DNA of 64,000 bases from Eledone cirrhosa (taxonomy: Eukaryota): NCBI GenBank assembly GCA_964016885.1, contig OZ024743.1, positions 225,928,001 to 225,992,000 on the forward strand, in the 5' to 3' direction. The notes beneath the pieces are model-generated. The model was not told the DNA's origin. It saw nothing but the letters and a program-made list of their open reading frames with translations, and made no database searches. The stretch's first letter is position 1. Each line of letters starts with the position of its first letter. Of this stretch, positions 12,926 to 27,372 are shown piece after piece. The position numbers and the translations under genes were made by a program.

Positions 12926-15236
12926 TTCCCTTGCTTTTATCGAGAATCTAATTGTAATACGTGACGTATTCTATTCTATAGCGATTAGGTCTTCAAAATG
13001 TTTATTATAAACATACAGAATATTCTCGAATATTCTATGTCTATATTCACATATATATCGCTATTTCAGAGCATTTATTCCAATTTCTAATTTCTGCCGG
13101 ACCGGCAACCGCTCTTTCAAACCAGTTCCTGTACACAGCTAAGTATTCTATAAGTCTCTAGCTGTGTCATTCTCGATAAAAGCACTGGATATGTAGTCCT
13201 GATGATTTCTAACAAGAATGAAACGCGTAGATTACTTCCCTTGCTTTTATCGAGAATCTAATTGTAATACGTGACGTATTCTATTCTATAGCGATTAGGT
13301 CTTCAAAATGTTTATTATAAACATACAGAATATTCTCGAATATTCTATGTCTATATTCACATATATATCGCTATTTCAGAGCATTTATTCCAATTTCTAA
13401 TTTCTGCCGGACCGGCAACCGCTCTTTCAAACCAGTTCCTGTACACAGCTAAGTATTCTATAAGTCTCTAGCTGTGTCATTCTCGATAAAAGCACTGGAT
13501 ATGTAGTCCTGATGATTTCTAACAAGAATGAAACGCGTAGATTACTTCCCTTGCTTTTATCGAGAATCTAATTGTAATACGTGACGTATTCTATTCTATA
13601 GCGATTAGGTCTTCAAAATGTTTATTATAAACATACAGAATATTCTCGAATATTCTATGTCTATATTCACATATATATCGCTATTTCAGAGCATTTATTC
13701 CAATTTCTAATTTCTGCCGGACCGGCAACCGCTCTTTCAAACCAGTTCCTGTACACAGCTAAGTATTCTATAAGTCTCTAGCTGTGTCATTCTCGATAAA
13801 AGCACTGGATATGTAGTCCTGATGATTTCTAACAAGAATGAAACGCGTAGATTACTTCCCTTGCTTTTATCGAGAATCTAATTGTAATACGTGACGTATT
13901 CTATTCTATAGCGATTAGGTCTTCAAAATGTTTATTATAAACATACAGAATATTCTCGAATATTCTATGTCTATATTCACATATATATCGCTATTTCAGA
14001 GCATTTATTCCAATTTCTAATTTCTGCCGGACCGGCAACCGCTCTTTCAAACCAGTTCCTGTACACAGCTAAGTATTCTATAAGTCTCTAGCTGTGTCAT
14101 TCTCGATAAAAGCACTGGATATGTAGTCCTGATGATTTCTAACAAGAATGAAACGCGTAGATTACTTCCCTTGCTTTTATCGAGAATCTAATTGTAATAC
14201 GTGACGTATTCTATTCTATAGCGATTAGGTCTTCAAAATGTTTATTATAAACATACAGAATATTCTCGAATATTCTATGTCTATATTCACATATATATCG
14301 CTATTTCAGAGCATTTATTCCAATTTCTAATTTCTGCCGGACCGGCAACCGCTCTTTCAAACCAGTTCCTGTACACAGCTAAGTATTCTATAAGTCTCTA
14401 GCTGTGTCATTCTCGATAAAAGCACTGGATATGTAGTCCTGATGATTTCTAACAAGAATGAAACGCGTAGATTACTTCCCTTGCTTTTATCGAGAATCTA
14501 ATTGTAATACGTGACGTATTCTATTCTATAGCGATTAGGTCTTCAAAATGTTTATTATAAACATACAGAATATTCTCGAATATTCTATGTCTATATTCAC
14601 ATATATATCGCTATTTCAGAGCATTTATTCCAATTTCTAATTTCTGCCGGACCGGCAACCGCTCTTTCAAACCAGTTCCTGTACACAGCTAAGTATTCTA
14701 TAAGTCTCTAGCTGTGTCATTCTCGATAAAAGCACTGGATATGTAGTCCTGATGATTTCTAACAAGAATGAAACGCGTAGATTACTTCCCTTGCTTTTAT
14801 CGAGAATCTAATTGTAATACGTGACGTATTCTATTCTATAGCGATTAGGTCTTCAAAATGTTTATTATAAACATACAGAATATTCTCGAATATTCTATGT
14901 CTATATTCACATATATATCGCTATTTCAGAGCATTTATTCCAATTTCTAATTTCTGCCGGACCGGCAACCGCTCTTTCAAACCAGTTCCTGTACACAGCT
15001 AAGTATTCTATAAGTCTCTAGCTGTGTCATTCTCGATAAAAGCACTGGATATGTAGTCCTGATGATTTCTAACAAGAATGAAACGCGTAGATTACTTCCC
15101 TTGCTTTTATCGAGAATCTAATTGTAATACGTGACGTATTCTATTCTATAGCGATTAGGTCTTCAAAATGTTTATTATAAACATACAGAATATTCTCGAA
15201 TATTCTATGTCTATATTCATATATATATATATATAT

Positions 15237-17628: not shown

Positions 17629-20031
17629 TCACGGAGACTTAAATCTTGTGAATTTAGTGGCAATCCTGTGTCTGCAGAAGATTGATCTTTCTATCTTGTT
17701 GCCGAGTATCCTTTTTACATTTTTTAGGATATATAATAATTCTAAATCACAGAACCTACAGTGGGACATACCGGTACTGCAGGTCTTTGCGGTCGACAAC
17801 CTCGACCAGTTGATATTGTAGTTGGTGTTATTGTCCTTAAGTTCCCAGATTTTTTTGGCGAGCGTTGTAGAACTCATAAGTGCACGATTTTTCATCGAGT
17901 GTCCGTGCACATACCATCTTTTTTTAAAAGTACCCGCGGTGGATCCAATGTAATGCCAAGTGGAGTTGTCTGAATTGACCGTACACATGTACACTAGGCT
18001 CGAATCAAGGCATCTATTCGCCAACGGGCACCTATCCGATAGGTGACGGTTACAGTTTGAGGTGTTATTTCGTGCAGCTTCCACACTGCTGTTTTGTACA
18101 CTGCTATAAGTGGGTTGTGATTTATGCCCGTTGGAGTTTTGTTGCTGCGTGCTTGTATGCGCTTGCGGTTGTGATACTGTGATGTGTTTATGTTTATAAT
18201 TTGGTGCTATGTTGCGCATAGGTGGGGCGGATTCCCTAGAGATATTTCTGTGGTTGATTTTGCGTATGTGCGATTCTATATTTGCTGCTGTAGAGTATGA
18301 GTTTTATAGTTTTTCTATTGAGTATTTTATGATATCTGTGTGAAATAGGGAAGTGTTTATCTATTAGTTTAAAGAATGTAGAAGGCAGTCTGGTTTTTAC
18401 AGAGGAGTTGAAGATTGGATTGAACCATTGGTATTTTCTTTCTCTGATTCTTCTATTGATTCTAGGGTTTACATTATTGGTGTTTGGACCATTTACTCTA
18501 GGTGCTACGTGCCTAACTCTATGTCTAGTCCTGTTACTTCTATTTTTGTGTGAGCGGTTGGTGTAATGGCTAGTAGGTTTGTTTAAGTTGTCTTTATTCG
18601 CTATAAACTGCAGTTTATCTTTATGTCCAGCCCTATGTAATGCTGCGTTATAATAGTTAGCATGTTTATTAAAAATTTCTAGGTTTAGGTATAAGCGGGA
18701 TATTCTAAGGGATATACTACGTGCTATGGATCTGATTATGGATTTGGGGTGGTTTGACTTATAACTAATGTAGGCCAGATTCTCATTATTTTTGTGGAAG
18801 GGTTCTATTAATCCCGTATTTAGATTTCGAGTCACATCTAGAAAGTTTACCGTTTTATGGTTCAGTTCGTAGGTAATACTTAGGCCTAGTTTTTTGAAGA
18901 ATGTTCTAATGTTTTTTCTTAATCTTTCCATGCTCTGGTTGTTTAAGTTCCTAGCTATAAGGAGCGTGTCGTCTCTGTAAATCCCTCCTTGGAGGTTACT
19001 GAATTCCTTATGTAGGTTGTGTGCTATAAATAGCCCCATGACGTCAGTGATTTGCACAGAATCATTTGATCCCATTGTGATATCGAAGCTGTTTATCCTA
19101 TCTTTTCTTACCCAGTAGCTACTTTCAAATTTTATGATAGTCCTTCTAGCCGCTATTATTATTTCAATTTCCTCAGGGGTAAGATCGGAGTTATTTTGGG
19201 CAAATATAAGCGCTTTATCTAGGGTGGCTGGGGATATGGATGCATAGTAATCGTTTATATCGAATTGTATGAAGTTACATGTCTCCCTATTTCGTATTTT
19301 ATTGAACCATTCAATCGCCTCGTTAGTGTTACCCCATAAATTGATTTCTAGTTTACCCTTTATTTGTGCGATTACCCTATCTAGAATGTTCTTGCTAATG
19401 TTACCTATATCTGACTTAGATGGGCATATTAATCTGATAGTAGGGTTTGTTTCAAAATTATTTTTGTGATCCTTCAGGTTAAATGTGGGGTTGCATGGGG
19501 TTAGAGGCTCGGTCCTATCAGGTATTCCGAGTTTATTTACTATCCTAAGGCCCTCCATGTTAATGCTGGTGAGTGTGGATTCGTTTGTTTTTTTTTGTAT
19601 TTTTTGTGTAGTTCACGCTGAATAAAATTATTGTATGTGTTAAGGTCCATAGAGTATACGTTTGATGTTTTGTCTGCCTTTACTATGATACCGTTAGTGT
19701 CTTTTAGTTTTTTTAGTAGTGTATTGATGCCATTTTGTAATTTGTTGTGGTGTGTTCTTTTTTTAAATTTAGTTCCACTTATCATATTCATAAGGTCCAG
19801 CTCGAAGGCATCGAGTGTAGGGTTGTTTGGAGGGTTTTTGCAGGATTTGAATCCGTAATTCTCCTTAGAAAATTCTCTTGCGTTAATAGCTGGTCCTTTG
19901 TCGAAGTGGGAAGCCTTCCAACGGACCCTACGGATGAAATCATTAGTCCGTTGTATCATGCCCAGCGTATAGTCCTTATTTGTAGGTATAGGTATGTTTT
20001 TCAGTGACATTCCTATACGGTGCTTGTCCAT
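17629..20031 (-). pseudogene. PLE reverse transcriptase plus GIY-YIG endonuclease (2 frameshifts)
   Basis: SLKNIP, ADKT, LKDHK, FDINDYY, FDITMGSND, IYRDD, NFLDV, SNHP, CPL..C, YIGST, FCRH across three consecutive ORFs. Confidence 0.93.
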
Positions 20032-20750
20032 GTTGTTGCCGTGCGTTAATGGTGTTGCTCAACCAGGTGGGAGCTAAGTATACGGGGTAACAGATTATTG
20101 TTATAGGTAGTCCACTTAAGTGTAGTCCAGTTATGGTACTCCAAGTAGTGGATGATATCAACGCTTGGTTAAGTTTGACTCAACAAGGCGTTTCCATAGT
20201 GATGCTGCGAGTACGCGGTAATTTCTATGTTGTAAACACTTGGAGTAATGATAAATCAGGAAAGAAGAGTGACACGGTTTGCTATACAAAAACGGTTTTT
20301 AATCTCATTGCTGACAATTGTTTCTCTGAACTGGTAGGTCTAGAGATCGCTACCCGCTTGTTTTCACGTCATTCGATCACCAATACATAATTGTAATCAG
20401 TCAATTCATCGGAGCTTGTGAGAATGAAAGGAATATACAGGATGGCTACTATATATAGTAGTAATGGCATTCAATCAGAACAATAACAACAATACTAATA
20501 CCGGCTTATCTTTACACTATATATAATACACCCATGACAGCTTTTACATGTCAATTTTATACATCTGCCTCATGTCAGCTAGTTTTACACGCTAAAATAG
20601 TAGATATACTATATTTCTCACCTAGATTGATGTTGTGATTATTTCCAATAATTTATTGCTAGCATTGTTAGTATTGTTGTTATTGTTCTGATTGAATGCC
20701 ATTACTACTATATATAGTAACCATCCTGTATATTCCTTTCATTCTCACAA

Positions 20751-20856
20751 GCTCCGATGAATTGACTGGTTACAACTAAGTATTGGTGATCGAATGACGT
20801 GAAAACAAGCGGGTAGCGATCTCTAGACCTACCAGTTCAGAGAAACAATTGTCAGC
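20751..20856 (+). ncRNA. Putative variant HHR (CCGAUGA core, long stem II); inverse copy at 20310-20415
   Basis: GCT CCGATGA [GACTGGT...ACCAGTT] GAAA CAATTG TC AGC. Confidence 0.5.
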
Positions 20857-21082
20857 AATGAGATTAAAAACCTCTTTTGTATAGCAAACCGTGTCACTCT
20901 TCTTTCCTGATTTATCATTAATCCAAGTGTTTACAACATAGAAATTACCGCGTACTCGCAGCATCCCTATGGAAACGCCTTGTTGAGTCAAACTTAGCCA
21001 AGCGTTGATATCATCCACTACTCGGAGTACCATAACTGGACTACACTTAAGTGGACTACCTATAACAATAATCTGTTACCCC

Positions 21083-21190: not shown

Positions 21191-21226
21191 GAGAACAATT
21201 GTTTCACCTTAGCGGATCCTCAGCTC
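21191..21226 (-). ncRNA. Minimal type I HHR
   Basis: Reverse complement reads GAG CTGAGGA TCC-GCTAA-GGT GAAA CAATTG TT CTC. Confidence 0.75.
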
Positions 21227-21402
21227 TTAATGGATATGGTTATACGGAACAGGAAGGACAACCGTACGAGCGCGCATGCGCAGAAACGATCACTTCATAC
21301 AGGCAATACGAAATTGCCTGTATGAAGTGATATGTGTAATGGAGATAACTGCGAAAGTCCGAAAGTTTCTAGTTGATAAGAAAATTAGGATGTTGTTGTA
21401 AT

Positions 21403-23506
21403 TCAATCCGGAGCTTTGTAGTTATGTAAGAGGTGTTTCCAGACGTGTGGACAACGTGTGAAGAATTCATTTCTCGTGTTTAGGCAATCACTATTGCGTA
21501 TTCTCTTTAGAATATTTATTCGTTCATCAATACATAGTCCACACGACGGATTTCCCCATGCGTATGGCTTGGACTTAGTGATGGCTTTCCATTGAATGGA
21601 GTAGTCTATACGTGAGTCCTTGAGGGACCATACGTGGCTGGCGAGTTTCGTGGATAAACGTCTGTCCGGGTACCTAAAGGTCGACTGGTGATTCAGGAAG
21701 CGTTCCTTAAATCGGCCCTCCACCATACCAACATAGGATTTGACCTCCTGTGGTTGATTTGGTCAGTTGGAAGTGGCCACAGCTTTATAAACTACAGCGG
21801 GTGTGTTGCATTACTGTTGAAGGAGGACAAGCGTCGGGCTTACGACAAGAGCACCCTGGTGGGGGTGTTGCTCTTAGGGCTGTTGGTGATGTGGGCCTTC
21901 ATGTTCTTAGCGCCGGAGTATCCTAGTTTTACTTTGTGTCGGTTAAAGATGGAGCGGTATTTATGATCTATGGGAAAGTGTCTACCTAAGATGGCTAGAA
22001 ATTTTTTGCCTACATTGGTTTTAACGTTGAGTGAGAAGGGAGAAGAACACCAGATAGTTTGTCTATTGTTATGCTTTCTTTTCTTATTGTTGTTGTTAGT
22101 GGGAGAGTAAGTGATAGGTTGCGAGAAGCCATTGTTAGCTAACGCCGTGTTATAGTAGGGTGCCGCCCTGTCAAAGATAGCCTTATTAGAGGAGAGGTTT
22201 GAGATTCTAGTACTGATATTATTTACGAAGTTTCTAAAAACCGTGGGAGGGTGGCATGAGTCCTTGTGAATATAATTGAGTTTTTCGTTTAGCTTATGGA
22301 AGGCTCTGTAGGTGTGTGTGCGAAGGTCTAAATTAATGTCTAAGAAATTTACTCTAGAGAAGTTGGTAGCTACTGTTATCCTAAGTCCTAACTCATTGAA
22401 GGTAGAACCTAAGTCTTTTTTAAACCGGTCGAGGTCGTGACCACTTTTATGGCTCGATAAGGTCAGTCCATCGTCGCGGTATATTCCCGTGTAGAAGTCC
22501 GGGAATCTAACACGTAATATGTCTAAAATAAATAGGTCAACCAAGTAGCATACGTCAGCACAGTCAAACGATCCCATGGAGACGTCGAATAGGTCTGAAG
22601 TTGTTGACTTCTTTGCCCAGGCTACTCCGTTGTTGAAGAGGAGGCTTTTCCGGCAGTGAGCGATGATTTCCCTGTCTAAACCATCGACGGTAGTGTAAGT
22701 GGTAGCAAAGTCCAACGCTTTGTTTAACAGGGTCTCTGAGATCGACGGGTAAAAATCAACAATGTAAAACTGTGTGAACTTCTCTTTTTTGTATTTGAAG
22801 GAGTTAAACCACTTAATTACGGAGTCTCTGTTCTCTCACTGGGGCAGGTTGGACTTGGTACTAATGCTCTTAACTATGTTTATAAGTATGGCCTTACTGA
22901 CTAGTCCCGTATCTGTGCCTGCCAGGTTTATTAGTCTACATGTGGGGTTAGAAGTAGTCTACCTTGTGATCTTTCAGAGTGAGGAACGCCTCCAGCTTAG
23001 CTAGAGATTGTAGCTTCTTATCTACCTTAAGGGAGGCGGCAAGTTCTTTGGCTTCTGTATTAATGTCGCGGTAGGTCATAGGGTTAGCTTTCTTATATTT
23101 GGAAGTAATAGCGTCGTTAAGGGCCAAGTGGCGGAAAGTGGTGTTGTCGACTTCGTAAATATTATTAGTTTTGTCGGAAAGAAAGAAAGTGTTATTAGAA
23201 GACCTAAATTTCTTAATATCATTTCTAAGTTTAGTTTGAAAGGTGTTAGGGTGTTTTCGAAAGGAAATGTTAGCGACTAAGTCAAGAAGGTCCGCCTAGA
23301 AAGGAACAAGTTTAGTTACCTTAGGAGGGTAGTTTCGATTTCAGGTTGAAGGTGTTATGGGTGCTTGTAATTTTGCCGTCAAAAGCTTGGGCTCGCCATC
23401 TTAAGCGTCTGACGATATCTTCCGCTTTTTGTAGAAGCTTTTGGTAAACATGGTTGGAGGGAGTGGGAATGTTCTTCAGGGAGTAATCCAGTTCGTATAA
23501 ATCCAT
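21403..23506 (-). pseudogene. PLE RT plus GIY-YIG (stops and frameshifts)
   Basis: YSLKNIP, FDVSMGSFD, IYRDDG, NFLDI, SCHP, IFNRHKVKLGYS, FKERFLNH, CGLCIDE, CPH. Confidence 0.92.
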
Positions 23507-23541
23507 ACTGACGTTGATGAGACAGAAAAATGTATATATAC

Positions 23542-23572
<31 letters not shown>

Positions 23573-23575
23573 CAA

Positions 23576-24606
23576 AATTAAAATTAAAGGTTGTCATGTC
23601 TGAGAGACATGCGCCATATCCACTGTAGAATAAGATCAAAGATTCCAATGAACAGATCTGAGCATTACATATCAACTAGAAATAGATTGATATATATATA
23701 TAAAATAAACATATGAAACAATCACAGGGAATAATTTGTAAAGAATGTAAGCACACATAGCTAGGTAGGTAACTAATTAAAGTTAAACTAGAACTTCAAA
23801 TATAGATACCTTTTAAAATGATTAATCTCCTTTGTATATATTTCTTTAAGTAAGAAATATATTTCACCAATTAATCCGTAAATCACAGCAGTCAAATATA
23901 GGATGGTCACCAAAGGAGAAGAAGATAACTATCTGCGTTTACAAAGCAAATGCAAATCTGTGAATGACTCGAACCACGTGTTGCATTTAAAAAAAAAAAA
24001 ATACACACATTCTTTACAAATTATTCCCTGTGATTGTTTTATATGTTTATTTTATATATATATATGTCAATCTATTTCTAGTTGATATGTAATGCTCAGA
24101 TCTGTTCATTGGAATCTTTGAGCTTCTTCTACAGTGGATATGGCGCATGTCTCTCAGACATGACAACCCTTAATTTTAATTGATTGTTGAGCTAATTCAG
24201 TTGAATGGACTCGGCTGCTATTTCTGGCTGTCGATGGTCCTATTTACGCCACTGGGATGACGTTGTGCAATGTGTGTATTTTAAAAAAAAATGCAACACG
24301 TGGTTTGAGTCATTCACAGATTTGCATTTGTTTTGTAAACGCAGATAGTTAGCTTCTTCTCCTTTGGTGACCATCCGATATTTGACTGCTGTGATTTACA
24401 GATTAATTGGTGAAATATATTTCTTACTTAAAGAAATATATACAAAGGAGATTAATCATTTTAAAAGGTATCTATATTTGAAGTCCTAGTTAAACTTTAA
24501 TTAGTTACCTACCTAGCTATGTGTGCTTACATTCTTTACAAATTATTCCCTGTGATTGTTTCATATGTTTATTTTATATATATATATATGTCAATCTATT
24601 TCTTGT

Positions 24607-24610
<4 letters not shown>
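23576..24610. mobile_element. Non-coding 522-bp circularly permuted unit in head-to-head inverted arrangement (retrozyme/pLTR-like)
   Basis: The right arm repeats with period 522 (24007 and 24529); the left arm 23576-24011 is the inverse of the same unit read across the wrap point; (TA)n flanks. Confidence 0.85.
24358..24451 (+). ncRNA. Type I HHR with G3-C8 swapped core and full stem III; inverse copy at 23826-23919
   Basis: TCTCCTTTG GTGACCA T-CCGAT...ATTGG-T GAAA TATATTTCT-TACTTAA-AGAAATATA TA CAAAGGAGA: perfect 9-bp stems I and III. Confidence 0.8.
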
Positions 24611-24669
<59 letters not shown>

Positions 24670-25732
24670 TTAAAACAATGAAATAAAAAATCAAGTCATT
24701 AGAGATATACTTCACTGCTTTACGATCGTTTCTAGATGGTGATAATACATTGTATCTATACTCAGTTATTGATCTATGTAAGTTTACAAACTATCATATA
24801 GAGAGAATATTTACTTACATGCATATCACCAGCTGTTTTCAAAAGCAATCAAGGGTTGGATGCGTCGTCACTGAACAAGTCATTACTTATTCAGAGCTAC
24901 TGGCCTCTAAGGCAAACCAGCGTCTCCATCTCGTTTATATATATATACTCCCTCACTCGACACAATGCATTTGGTGCAATTTATTCCAGAACCAAGGACG
25001 TTGTCATGTCTTTGACATATAAAAAGAGTTCTCTCTATCTTTTCTTTGGCAGACTTACTAAAACTGTTCACAAATACATCGTGGAAAATCATAGAAGTAT
25101 ATTGTGTTGCCAAAGCATTACGGATGAACATAGAGGTTGTCTGTGTTCACAAATGCATTAGAAAAGAACATGGAGGAATTGTACGGTGAAAAATGTACCA
25201 TGAAGGAACATGGGGGTATTGTATCATTGTGAAAAAGATTATGAGGAGACATAGAAGCTTTTTGCTTTGTTTATTGATGACCATAACCAAATTGTTGAAC
25301 ATCTGGGATACATTTAATGGACGTATATGTACATCTGAAGATAATCGGGTGTATTTTTGTAAAGCTAAAATGCATTATGATAGAAAGGATTATTTCATCG
25401 TTACATTTGTGACAAGAGAAAATAAACATCACATCATTAATCGATATGTATAAATGTTTTTTTTTATTTATCTCGGAGAAATATGATAGAAATAAAATTA
25501 AAAATAATTACAAGGCGAGCTCATATTTAAAATCAAAACTACATTATTAAGATAATTACTTGATAATTTGATGGTGATTAGGAAGAAAATTACTGCCAAT
25601 GCTGGTTTTTGCTAATCACTTTTGGCAAAAGTTATTTGAAACTAAAACATTTCAATATTTTCTCATCTTTCAATTGTTCGAATATTTTTATTTTAGCGAT
25701 TGTTTCTTTTTAGTGAGGCTTAATTTGATGTA

Positions 25733-25815
<83 letters not shown>

Positions 25816-26154
25816 GTATGTGTGTATATATATACATATATATTTGTGTGTGTGCACATATATACATATACAGACACACATATATACCTATATAAATATA
25901 TATTTGTATACACGTATATGCATATATAGACGCACACACTCCTATACACACACACATTCACACAAAAAATATACACGTAGATGAGCGCAGGCGTGTGTCG
26001 GTATGTCCTGTATGTGCGTATTTGTAAATGAGGATAGAAATTCAATATTCACATTTGTAAGCATTTTTATTTTATACACATGTTTTTTGTCTCTCCATAC
26101 GTGCATAGAGTCTTATATACATACATACATACATACATACATACATACACACAT

Positions 26155-26340
26155 GTTTGGACCAAAGTATGACTGAACTTGGATTTGCGGACAAAGAGCG
26201 CAGCTCCCTAATTCATAGTCTACAAATGGCTGCGATAGCTGGCACCTTCAAAATTTGCAAAACATTCTTACGATTCAAGGGATGACAATTTCTTTTCTTT
26301 TACAACCTTGCCACCAGGAAGGTGGCCGGTCAAAAAATAT
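26155..26340 (+). mobile_element. 3' fragment of a restriction-like-endonuclease non-LTR retrotransposon (R4/Dong-like) in (TACA)n
   Basis: Translates to ELGFADKERSSLIHSLQMAAIAGTFKICKTFLRFKG*, resembling the RLE C-terminal QxAxxxGTxxI motif. Confidence 0.55.
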
Positions 26341-26759
26341 ACTCGAAATTAAGAGAAAGAGATAACATACGTACATAAATACATACATACATACATACAT
26401 ACATACATACATACACACATAAATACATACATACATACGTACATAAATACATACATACATACATACATAAATATATACGTACTTGCATGCATACATATAA
26501 ATATTGATAAACATGCGCATATATACACCTATATACATACACACCTATATACATACATACACGTACACTTATATATGCAAATTTAATGAAAAACATACAA
26601 ATTCACACACGCCATAACATGCATGAATGCAAACACTTACACAAACATAACTTTCTCTCTCTCTATCTCTCTCTCACTTTCTCTCTTTCTCTATTCCACC
26701 CCTCTCTCTCTCTCTCTACACACACACACATATATATATGTATGTATGTATATATATGT

Positions 26760-27372
26760 ATGTCGGATCACTCTTGAGTGTTACTGGTAACATGTAACCC
26801 AGTACAACCTGTCGCATGGTCGGGTCGTCGGCGACTAAACCGGTAACCCCACCAAGTTTACTTGGTGAGGATGGTGATTTTGGACACCCTGCAGGACAAA
26901 AAACAAAACCTGACAAAGGGCGGAAGAACTCATAAGAGTCAACGGTCATCCAAATGTGTGTAAATATGGATATGCACATGTATATATATGTGTATATATA
27001 TGGGTGCATGTGTATGTATATGCGCGGGGACATATAAATAGTCGGGCTGGACACCCGATCGCGCGGTTAAACCACTGGGAGTGAAGGACCCCTCACCTTT
27101 GTCAGGGCATTCTTCTAGGAGAAGGCAATTCAGGAAACTGGGATAACTCCGATATAAAACCTGCGGCTCAGTAGTTACCGATGATGTTGATCTTTTCTTC
27201 TTTTCGGTTTATAGCTACTGTCGCTCAGAGAGTGGGATTGGCTCAGTGCACAGTCTTTCCTCACTTAAAAAAATATCTTCACGCACATGCATTGCACGAT
27301 AGAATTAATTAATAATTATTAATAATGGTATTTCATGCAATGGCCATACTCGATAACGTGGGGGCAGCCATC
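26760..27372. mobile_element. Probable RTE-type LINE 5'UTR-derived non-autonomous fragments
   Basis: GC-richer blocks with a TCTAGGAGAAGG...AAACC motif typical of RTE 5' UTRs; no ORF. Confidence 0.35.

Follow-up and report, generated by a model that had tools for sequence, protein, structure and literature searches.

The window analysed here, a stretch of 64,000 nucleotides of Eledone cirrhosa DNA, contains a hammerhead motif carried by a non-coding, Penelope-type repeat of ~545 nt that is inserted in (TA)n. The features of this insertion are listed below, with monomer positions counted from the predicted cut and the source of each assignment in brackets.

23533-23572, no strand: target-site (TA)n at the left 3' end (repeat scan)
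23576-24010, minus strand: left arm, a 5'-truncated inverted copy (monomer 374-542, then 1-~265) with the long 3' end, or tail (blastn)
23826-23919, minus strand: mirror hammerhead copy in the left arm, with G3 at 23910 (sequence search)
24005-24613, plus strand: right arm, 1.1 units (monomer 87-542, then 1-173) with the short 3' end (blastn of a natural monomer)
24334-24352, plus strand: 5' flank strand of a long covarying helix (fold, covariation)
24358-24366, plus strand: stem I, 5' strand (sequence, fold)
24367-24373, plus strand: core G3 U4 G5 A6 C7 C8 A9, GUGACCA (sequence, genome counts)
24374-24376, plus strand: U10.1 and CC, the latter the 5' strand of a short stem II (58-row alignment)
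24382-24400, plus strand: loop II strand pairing with the 5' flank (fold, covariation)
24409-24415, plus strand: GG (stem II, 3' strand), U11.1, G12 A13 A14 and A15.1 (flank-anchored copies)
24415-24441, plus strand: stem III, 11 bp, with a 5-nt loop (fold)
24442-24443, plus strand: predicted cleavage site, after A17 of the UA (hammerhead numbering)
24443-24451, plus strand: stem I, 3' strand (sequence, fold)
24609-24667, no strand: target-site (TA)n at the right 3' end (repeat scan)

The right arm contains a direct repeat (24007/24529). The preliminary description of this DNA was right in reporting the same core in both window copies, but since these are the arms of a single head-to-head inverted insertion between two (TA)n tracts, their agreement is not independent evidence.

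The hammerhead motif

The perfect 9-bp stem I, the GUGACCA core, the GAA-A (24412-24415 in the right arm) and the UA site (U16.1-A17, 24441-24442) are confirmed from the sequence as first described. Stem III, in contrast, had been given as 9 bp and has 11 (24415-24425/24431-24441), of which 8 are kept family-wide, and its loop is non-palindromic; the point that a stable stem III sets this motif apart from the minimal, dimer-type PLE hammerheads, in which that stem is absent or a palindrome of 1-2 bp, is thereby upheld. Two aspects of the preliminary description need revision. The 5-bp stem II (CCGAT/ATTGG) is a private state of the window's right copy and not a family trait: only CC/GG is kept across the 58 aligned copies (the two pairs form in 57 and 56 of them), together with a U10.1·U11.1 mismatch. 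In addition, a covarying helix of ~20 bp between the 5' flank and loop II had been overlooked.

Across the family, the three helices stand in type I order, and each of the stems (I, II and III) is paired in 97% of cells, stem II being only 2 bp long. The 5' half of the core was preset by the genome search patterns and is largely intact in loci anchored on their 3' side, while the 3' half was read in 274 copies anchored on their flanks. There, U11.1, G12, A13, A14 and A15.1 are each retained in 262-268 of the 274 copies, and position 17 is an A in 265. The consensus C3 and G8 are absent from the window hammerhead, which has G3 and C8, and present in 53 older relatives.

The fold of the 94-mer beats 200 of 200 shuffles (z -4.4). 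The bare GUGANCA..GAAA pattern occurs in the window at chance level (3 matches against 3.6 expected), so the significance of the motif is carried by its stems and by the family. No Rfam hammerhead was obtained at the gathering threshold in the whole window, nor at E<=10 in 22000-27000; as the gathering scan also missed the CUGANGA hammerheads of the window, this miss says little about the swap.

Core pair 3-8 across the genome

A genome pattern consisting of the stem I arm, with positions 3, 7 and 8 left free, gave 529 matches, against 4 for a reversed-pattern control. G3-C8 is found in 407 of them and C3-G8 in 53; the remaining 69, all of which were fetched, comprise 9 unrelated chance matches and 60 homologous copies, with U3-A8 (9), G·U (12), C·A (9), G·A, C·C and A·C (7 each), C·U (4), U·C (2) and G·G, A·G and U·G (1 each). 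All 30 C3-G8 loci that were fetched, out of the 53, align to the same ~545-nt unit. A further, U3-A8 sister branch was found through 3'-anchored loci; its stem I has changed on both strands, the changes compensating each other, and the corresponding pattern gave 1,335 matches, 1,305 of them U3-A8, with all 30 fetched loci being homologous.

Pair 3-8 therefore covaries among three Watson-Crick states (C-G, U-A and G-C) in one lineage, which bears out the compensatory swap initially proposed for it. Conservation of the core across the family, set beforehand as the test of that proposal, is seen in the 407 G3-C8 matches, with N7 as the one free core position, variable in every branch. Single mismatches in the G3-C8 background amount to 3.2% and 3.9% per site, which corresponds to neutral decay (median 3.4%).

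These data also bear on the simplest alternative, a chance likeness in which a look-alike word would happen to lie in an AT-rich foldback repeat. The Rfam result and the chance frequency of the bare core pattern are what this reading would expect; however, older relatives hold a textbook CUGANGA core in the same frame, and we consider it ruled out, with hardly any probability left to it, by these C3-G8 relatives together with the three-state covariation.

It was likewise correctly foreseen that CUGANGA searches would miss such cores: any hammerhead census bound to that consensus would pass over ~1,700 copies in the source genome alone. Pair 3-8 was formerly supported by the crystal structure and by rescue mutants, with C-G and U-A known in nature, and a G-C clade of 400 copies beside C-G and U-A relatives gives it phylogenetic support.

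Two side observations concern these branches. The U3-A8 sister branch (loci L249-L278; G000) is three times larger than the G3-C8 clade, and its flank/loop II helix is fast-evolving and fully compensated, making it the better set for covariation statistics. Separately, three near-identical copies with a G3·U8 wobble (L100, L101 and L103) represent either a small propagated lineage or segmental duplicates.

Insertion layout and mobilisation

The unit has a low GC content (0.33-0.34) and no ORF, the longest ATG-started frame in three monomers being of 43-69 codons. Tandem hammerheads are spaced by 526-561 nt in 6 of 8 distinct pairs, and by 431 and 669 nt in the others. Among 60 G3-C8 loci, taken in genome order, an inverted partner is present in 23 and a tandem partner in 5. 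In loci L001-L189, the 3' ends cluster at two points ~90 nt apart, with 56 and 98 ends, nearly all of them followed by TA repeats. Two such 3' ends, each followed by (TA)n, match the tail of the PLEs (PMC11167929 and PMC8557442, in the parts available), whose layout is described as including inversion, an optional tail and (TA)n targets, the last especially in the Hydra clade (PMC8557442, likewise in part), and whose tail has been explained by two internal starts of reverse transcription (PMC11167929, in the portion available). Thus, the hallmarks of PLE mobilisation are all found here: an inverted 5'-truncated partner, an optional 3' tail and a microsatellite target. No pile-up of 5' ends is seen at the predicted cut, where 1 of the first 100 joins exactly. 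The inversion junction of locus L173 (G000:C1:345105975) falls exactly at the predicted cut; it is 1 of the first 100 listed, which is no enrichment.

Rather than a coding PLE, the element is a retrozyme-like unit that is non-autonomous: autonomous PLEs are defined by an RT plus GIY-YIG ORF between pLTRs, and the unit has no ORF. A tblastn search of 278 loci found RT/EN fragments near ~30; where inspected (the window and L163), these are separate insertions. Two candidate relationships were rejected. A coding parent near the loci was discarded on the one upstream case inspected, L163, in which (TA)n separates the repeat from the RT/EN sequence; and the hammerhead is not the pLTR of the adjacent RT gene of the window, since (TA)n lies between them and that gene has a CUGAGGA hammerhead of its own.

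That gene belongs to a broken Penelope element of the Hydra clade at 21191-23509 (minus strand), with RWR, DKT and RDD motifs, a C-terminal endonuclease-like piece and a (TA)n flank. Its broken ORF, from 23509 to 21403 (minus strand), resembles by eye the published Hydra-1_Obim protein, and its minimal CUGAGGA hammerhead (21191-21226) has the same U-CC..GG-U stem II base as the window motif. This element is a separate insertion, and we regard it as a candidate for the type of helper involved, not as the parent. A second, divergent Hydra-like RT/EN element lies at 17629-20058 (minus strand), with RWK, DKT and RDD, 33% identical to the broken one, and beside it there is an inverted repeat (~20090-20450 and 20720-21080). 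No Pfam family was found in five ORF pieces of the two elements, both being assigned to the PLEs by their motifs and by the visual match to Hydra-1_Obim.

Lineage history of the core pair

A FastTree tree was made from the trimmed alignment without columns 3, 7 and 8, with 186 of 203 copies, short or untrimmable rows being excluded; a first tree, which contained non-homologous flanks, was distorted and was redone on the trimmed copies. In the tree of trimmed copies, 104 of 105 G3-C8 rows fall in one clade. In a subsample of 97 rows, also with positions 3, 7 and 8 dropped, all 34 G3-C8 rows form one clade (SH-aLRT 92), and the large U3-A8 branch forms a second one (23 rows, support 100). Both clades emerge from a poorly resolved intermediate group containing C-G, U-A, C·A and G·A states, which in turn joins the older C3-G8 group; a starred clade within this intermediate group probably owes its support to shared short 3' ends. 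The trees have no outgroup and their direction is taken from age, measured as nearest-neighbour distance: 0.127 in the old group, 0.059 in the intermediate one, 0.047 in U-A and 0.041 in G-C.

Among the intermediate copies with A7-A8 (n=18), position 3 is U in 10, one of which is a tandem partner, C in 5 and G in 3. Thus 8 of the 18 are off-pair, against 4.6% from decay (p about 6e-7), which means that mismatched cores could be copied; they seem indeed to have been copied, an intact pair not being needed for every round. The excess is consistent with stepwise change from C-G through C·A, U-A and G·A to G-C, a series whose steps the tree cannot order, and the C·A copies could alternatively derive from C-G ones.

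The same observations can be taken to mean that the G3-C8 form is a nearly dead hammerhead, which would have spread without cleavage, with its core kept as a fold (for protein binding, for example) or simply owing to the youth of the lineage. The over-representation of C3·A8 and G3·A8 in the intermediate group speaks for this, as do the missing 5'-end footprint at the cut site and the similarity of the closest dispersed copies, 92-94% identical to the window copy in a family whose copies are 3-5% diverged. However, both expanded branches ended on Watson-Crick pairs, each requiring change at both positions, and U4-A6, A9, G12-A15.1, U16.1 and A17 are fixed across subfamilies 23-32% apart while N7 is free. 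The chemistry cuts both ways: what position 8 contributes to catalysis is its 2'-OH (PMC6155905, in part), and C3G partly rescues the cleavage of G8C, PLE hammerhead included (PMC11167929 and PMC8495972, in part), so that a G3-C8 core can work, although the rescue by the swap is only partial. Weighing these points, we find a nearly dead hammerhead improbable, and the swapped G3-C8 form is likely a working self-cutting RNA that standard searches miss, as judged from its sequence record.

A long helix between the 5' flank and loop II

In all subfamilies, ~20 bp form between the 5' flank and loop II, which is 30-39 nt long. Within this helix, two column pairs have compensated changes, seen in 8 and in 10 of 58 rows, G·U exchanges are numerous, and an insertion in one strand has its counterpart in the other. 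Over the 58 rows, pairing amounts to 92% for the structure as a whole and to 37-52% after sliding. The number of pairs with two-sided change, 6, is not above the 6.4 of the shuffles, the rows being related: the covariation counts represent few events inherited by many rows. The comparison between branches is a stronger test of the helix than these counts: the flank/loop duplex has -14 to -20 kcal/mol when both strands come from the same branch, and -7 to -15 when G3-C8 and U3-A8 strands are crossed. In the window copy, some of the base pairs closest to the stems are no longer formed. The distal half of the loop strand is deleted in two of 30 U3-A8 copies, which have this deletion in common, and this hints that the proximal half may be enough.

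The helix most likely forms a pseudoknot, which would brace stems I and II. Its topology matches the pseudoknot of Perreault et al. (2011), and in the available parts of that report (PMC3088659) pseudoknots with a stem II of 1-2 bp are functional and needed for fast cleavage, and U10.1·U11.1 is described. Three points speak against this reading. The nested-folding weight of the hammerhead is low (0.06 in the 94-mer, 0.02 with flanks and <=3e-4 in the eight other copies computed), in a model that cannot hold a pseudoknot; G12-A14 can be captured by loop II in a conserved rival hairpin; and the 8-13 nt of loop II outside the helix would, by our estimate, barely suffice to span its 20 bp.

It is also conceivable, if unlikely, that the hammerhead is real and able to cut, and that the long helix is an off-switch, or belongs to a rod-like circle fold, until a Penelope protein or refolding opens the RNA. 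When the 3' strand of stem I is left out, most of the 64 copies shown have the long hairpin as their most stable fold. Circular folding is strong in 3 of 4 monomers (z -4.4 to -5.4, against -2.0 in a 660-nt monomer), with a non-hammerhead core in the one fold printed, and the PAc hammerhead needed protein (PMC11167929, in part). Against the off-switch, the ends of the helix coincide with the tips of stems I and II in all subfamilies, despite insertions on both strands, and the core is left uninvaded; its topology is that of activating pseudoknots; and by a rough sum of helix energies, with loop penalties excluded, the pseudoknotted fold is more stable than the nested minimum by 13-18 kcal/mol.

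Proposed mechanism

Our preferred reading, which we hold to be reasonably probable, is that of a type I G3-C8 hammerhead on a non-coding, ~545-nt Penelope-type repeat, cutting itself after A17 as a monomer and braced by the predicted pseudoknot. Monomer cleavage would be structurally allowed by the long stem III and its non-palindromic loop. In tandem or read-through transcripts, the flank/loop II helix would fold first, holding stems I and II side by side, which is the job of the loop-loop contacts in classical hammerheads, and hiding a UUUAC that could otherwise pair with G12-A14. C8, held by G3, would give its 2'-OH as G8 does, at a rate presumably below that of C3-G8. Cuts one unit apart would set free monomers of ~545 nt, which would probably be joined into circles in the manner of the non-LTR retrozymes; these are reported to cut tandem RNA into units (PMC7229834, in part). 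Finally, the RT/endonuclease of a Hydra-clade Penelope would copy the monomers in trans into (TA)n, reverse copying starting at either of two internal sites. It speaks against this reading that in a Poseidon PLE hammerhead cleavage needed protein and, in vitro, could be dispensed with for insertion (PMC11167929, in the part available).

A bolder version, to which we give somewhat less than even chances, is that the active site is so well buffered by the long pseudoknot that pair 3-8 could move from C-G to U-A and on to G-C via single mismatches, every step of which can still be read in this one genome, and that the family, a retrozyme family of cephalopod type, holds the first natural active G3-C8 hammerhead. 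If true, a hidden class of swapped-core hammerheads with long pseudoknots would exist in animal repeats, missed by CUGANGA searches. We found no natural G3-C8 hammerhead in the literature searched, a coverage that lacks key core-variant work, so that priority is not established: it appears there as an engineered variant (PMC11167929 and PMC8495972, in part), and no natural case is present in the available portions of PMC7151607, PMC10085705, PMC11014351, PMC6765202, PMC2920678 and 10.64898/2026.07.22.740005.

Relation to known hammerheads and retrozymes

The following comparisons refer to the accessible parts of the cited works. The element resembles the metazoan non-LTR retrozymes (PMC7229834; 10.64898/2026.07.22.740005), with which it shares a non-coding, low-GC unit with one type I hammerhead, tandem copies, strong circle self-pairing and a link to the PLEs. 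There are, however, important differences: (i) the reported units are of 170-400 nt, against 526-561 nt here; (ii) instead of long arrays, we find mostly 1-2 units with inversions, and tandem copies in 5 of 60 loci; (iii) stem III is long, and a predicted pseudoknot replaces the loop-loop contacts; (iv) the core is G3-C8 or U3-A8; and (v) the unit is known from DNA copies, its circles being only predicted.

With the hammerheads of the Hydra-clade PLEs (Craig et al. 2021, PMC8557442, File S2), the element shares (TA)n targets, an inverted 5'-truncated partner, an optional tail and, as in many of their members, a U·U at the stem II base; this insertion anatomy ties the retrozyme-like unit to Hydra-clade Penelope mobilisation. 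In contrast, the Hydra rows of that file all have a CUGANGA core and a stem III of 3-4 bp, whereas the unit described here has no ORF, a stem III of 8-11 bp and a tail of ~90 nt instead of 30-40.

Concerning the core, natural U3-A8 variants (Perreault et al. 2011, PMC3088659; the Schistosoma Cercyon PLE of Cervera and de la Pena 2014, PMC4209133) share the Watson-Crick covariation of pair 3-8, in the Cercyon case also in a PLE context. As far as these texts go, those variants involve C-G to U-A only (two transitions), while here a clade of 400 copies has G-C as well, and one lineage contains all three states. The same core pair is found in engineered double mutants of the C3G/G8C type (Martick and Scott 2006, cited via PMC11167929 and PMC8495972), but these are laboratory constructs with partial activity, whereas the window form is natural and amplified. 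As for the periphery, the pseudoknot-stabilised hammerheads (PMC3088659) share a stem II of 1-2 bp and a Watson-Crick helix joining post-stem-II sequence to the periphery of stem I; the example tested is a type II hammerhead from a metagenome, with a 6-bp pseudoknot, and the present one belongs to type I, sits in an animal repeat and has a helix of ~20 bp. The three-state family is a natural series for how peripheral structure sets the tolerance to core changes. Taken together, this is a real natural G3-C8 hammerhead variant, unusually well backed by comparison, in a retrozyme-like PLE satellite that probably forms a long pseudoknot.

Other repeats in the window

At 8402-12808 (minus strand) and 12823-15228 (plus strand), a 310-nt unit is repeated 22 times at 99% identity; the array is inverted at ~12815 and has (TA)n on its flanks. 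A canonical type I hammerhead with a CUGAUGA core, whose stem III is palindromic, is present in every unit, and the unit folds well as a circle (z -4.3). This array is a very recent non-LTR retrozyme with a PLE-type inversion. At the end of the window, a minisatellite (61478-64000) with units of 28-30 bp, at least 85 in number, runs off the last position.
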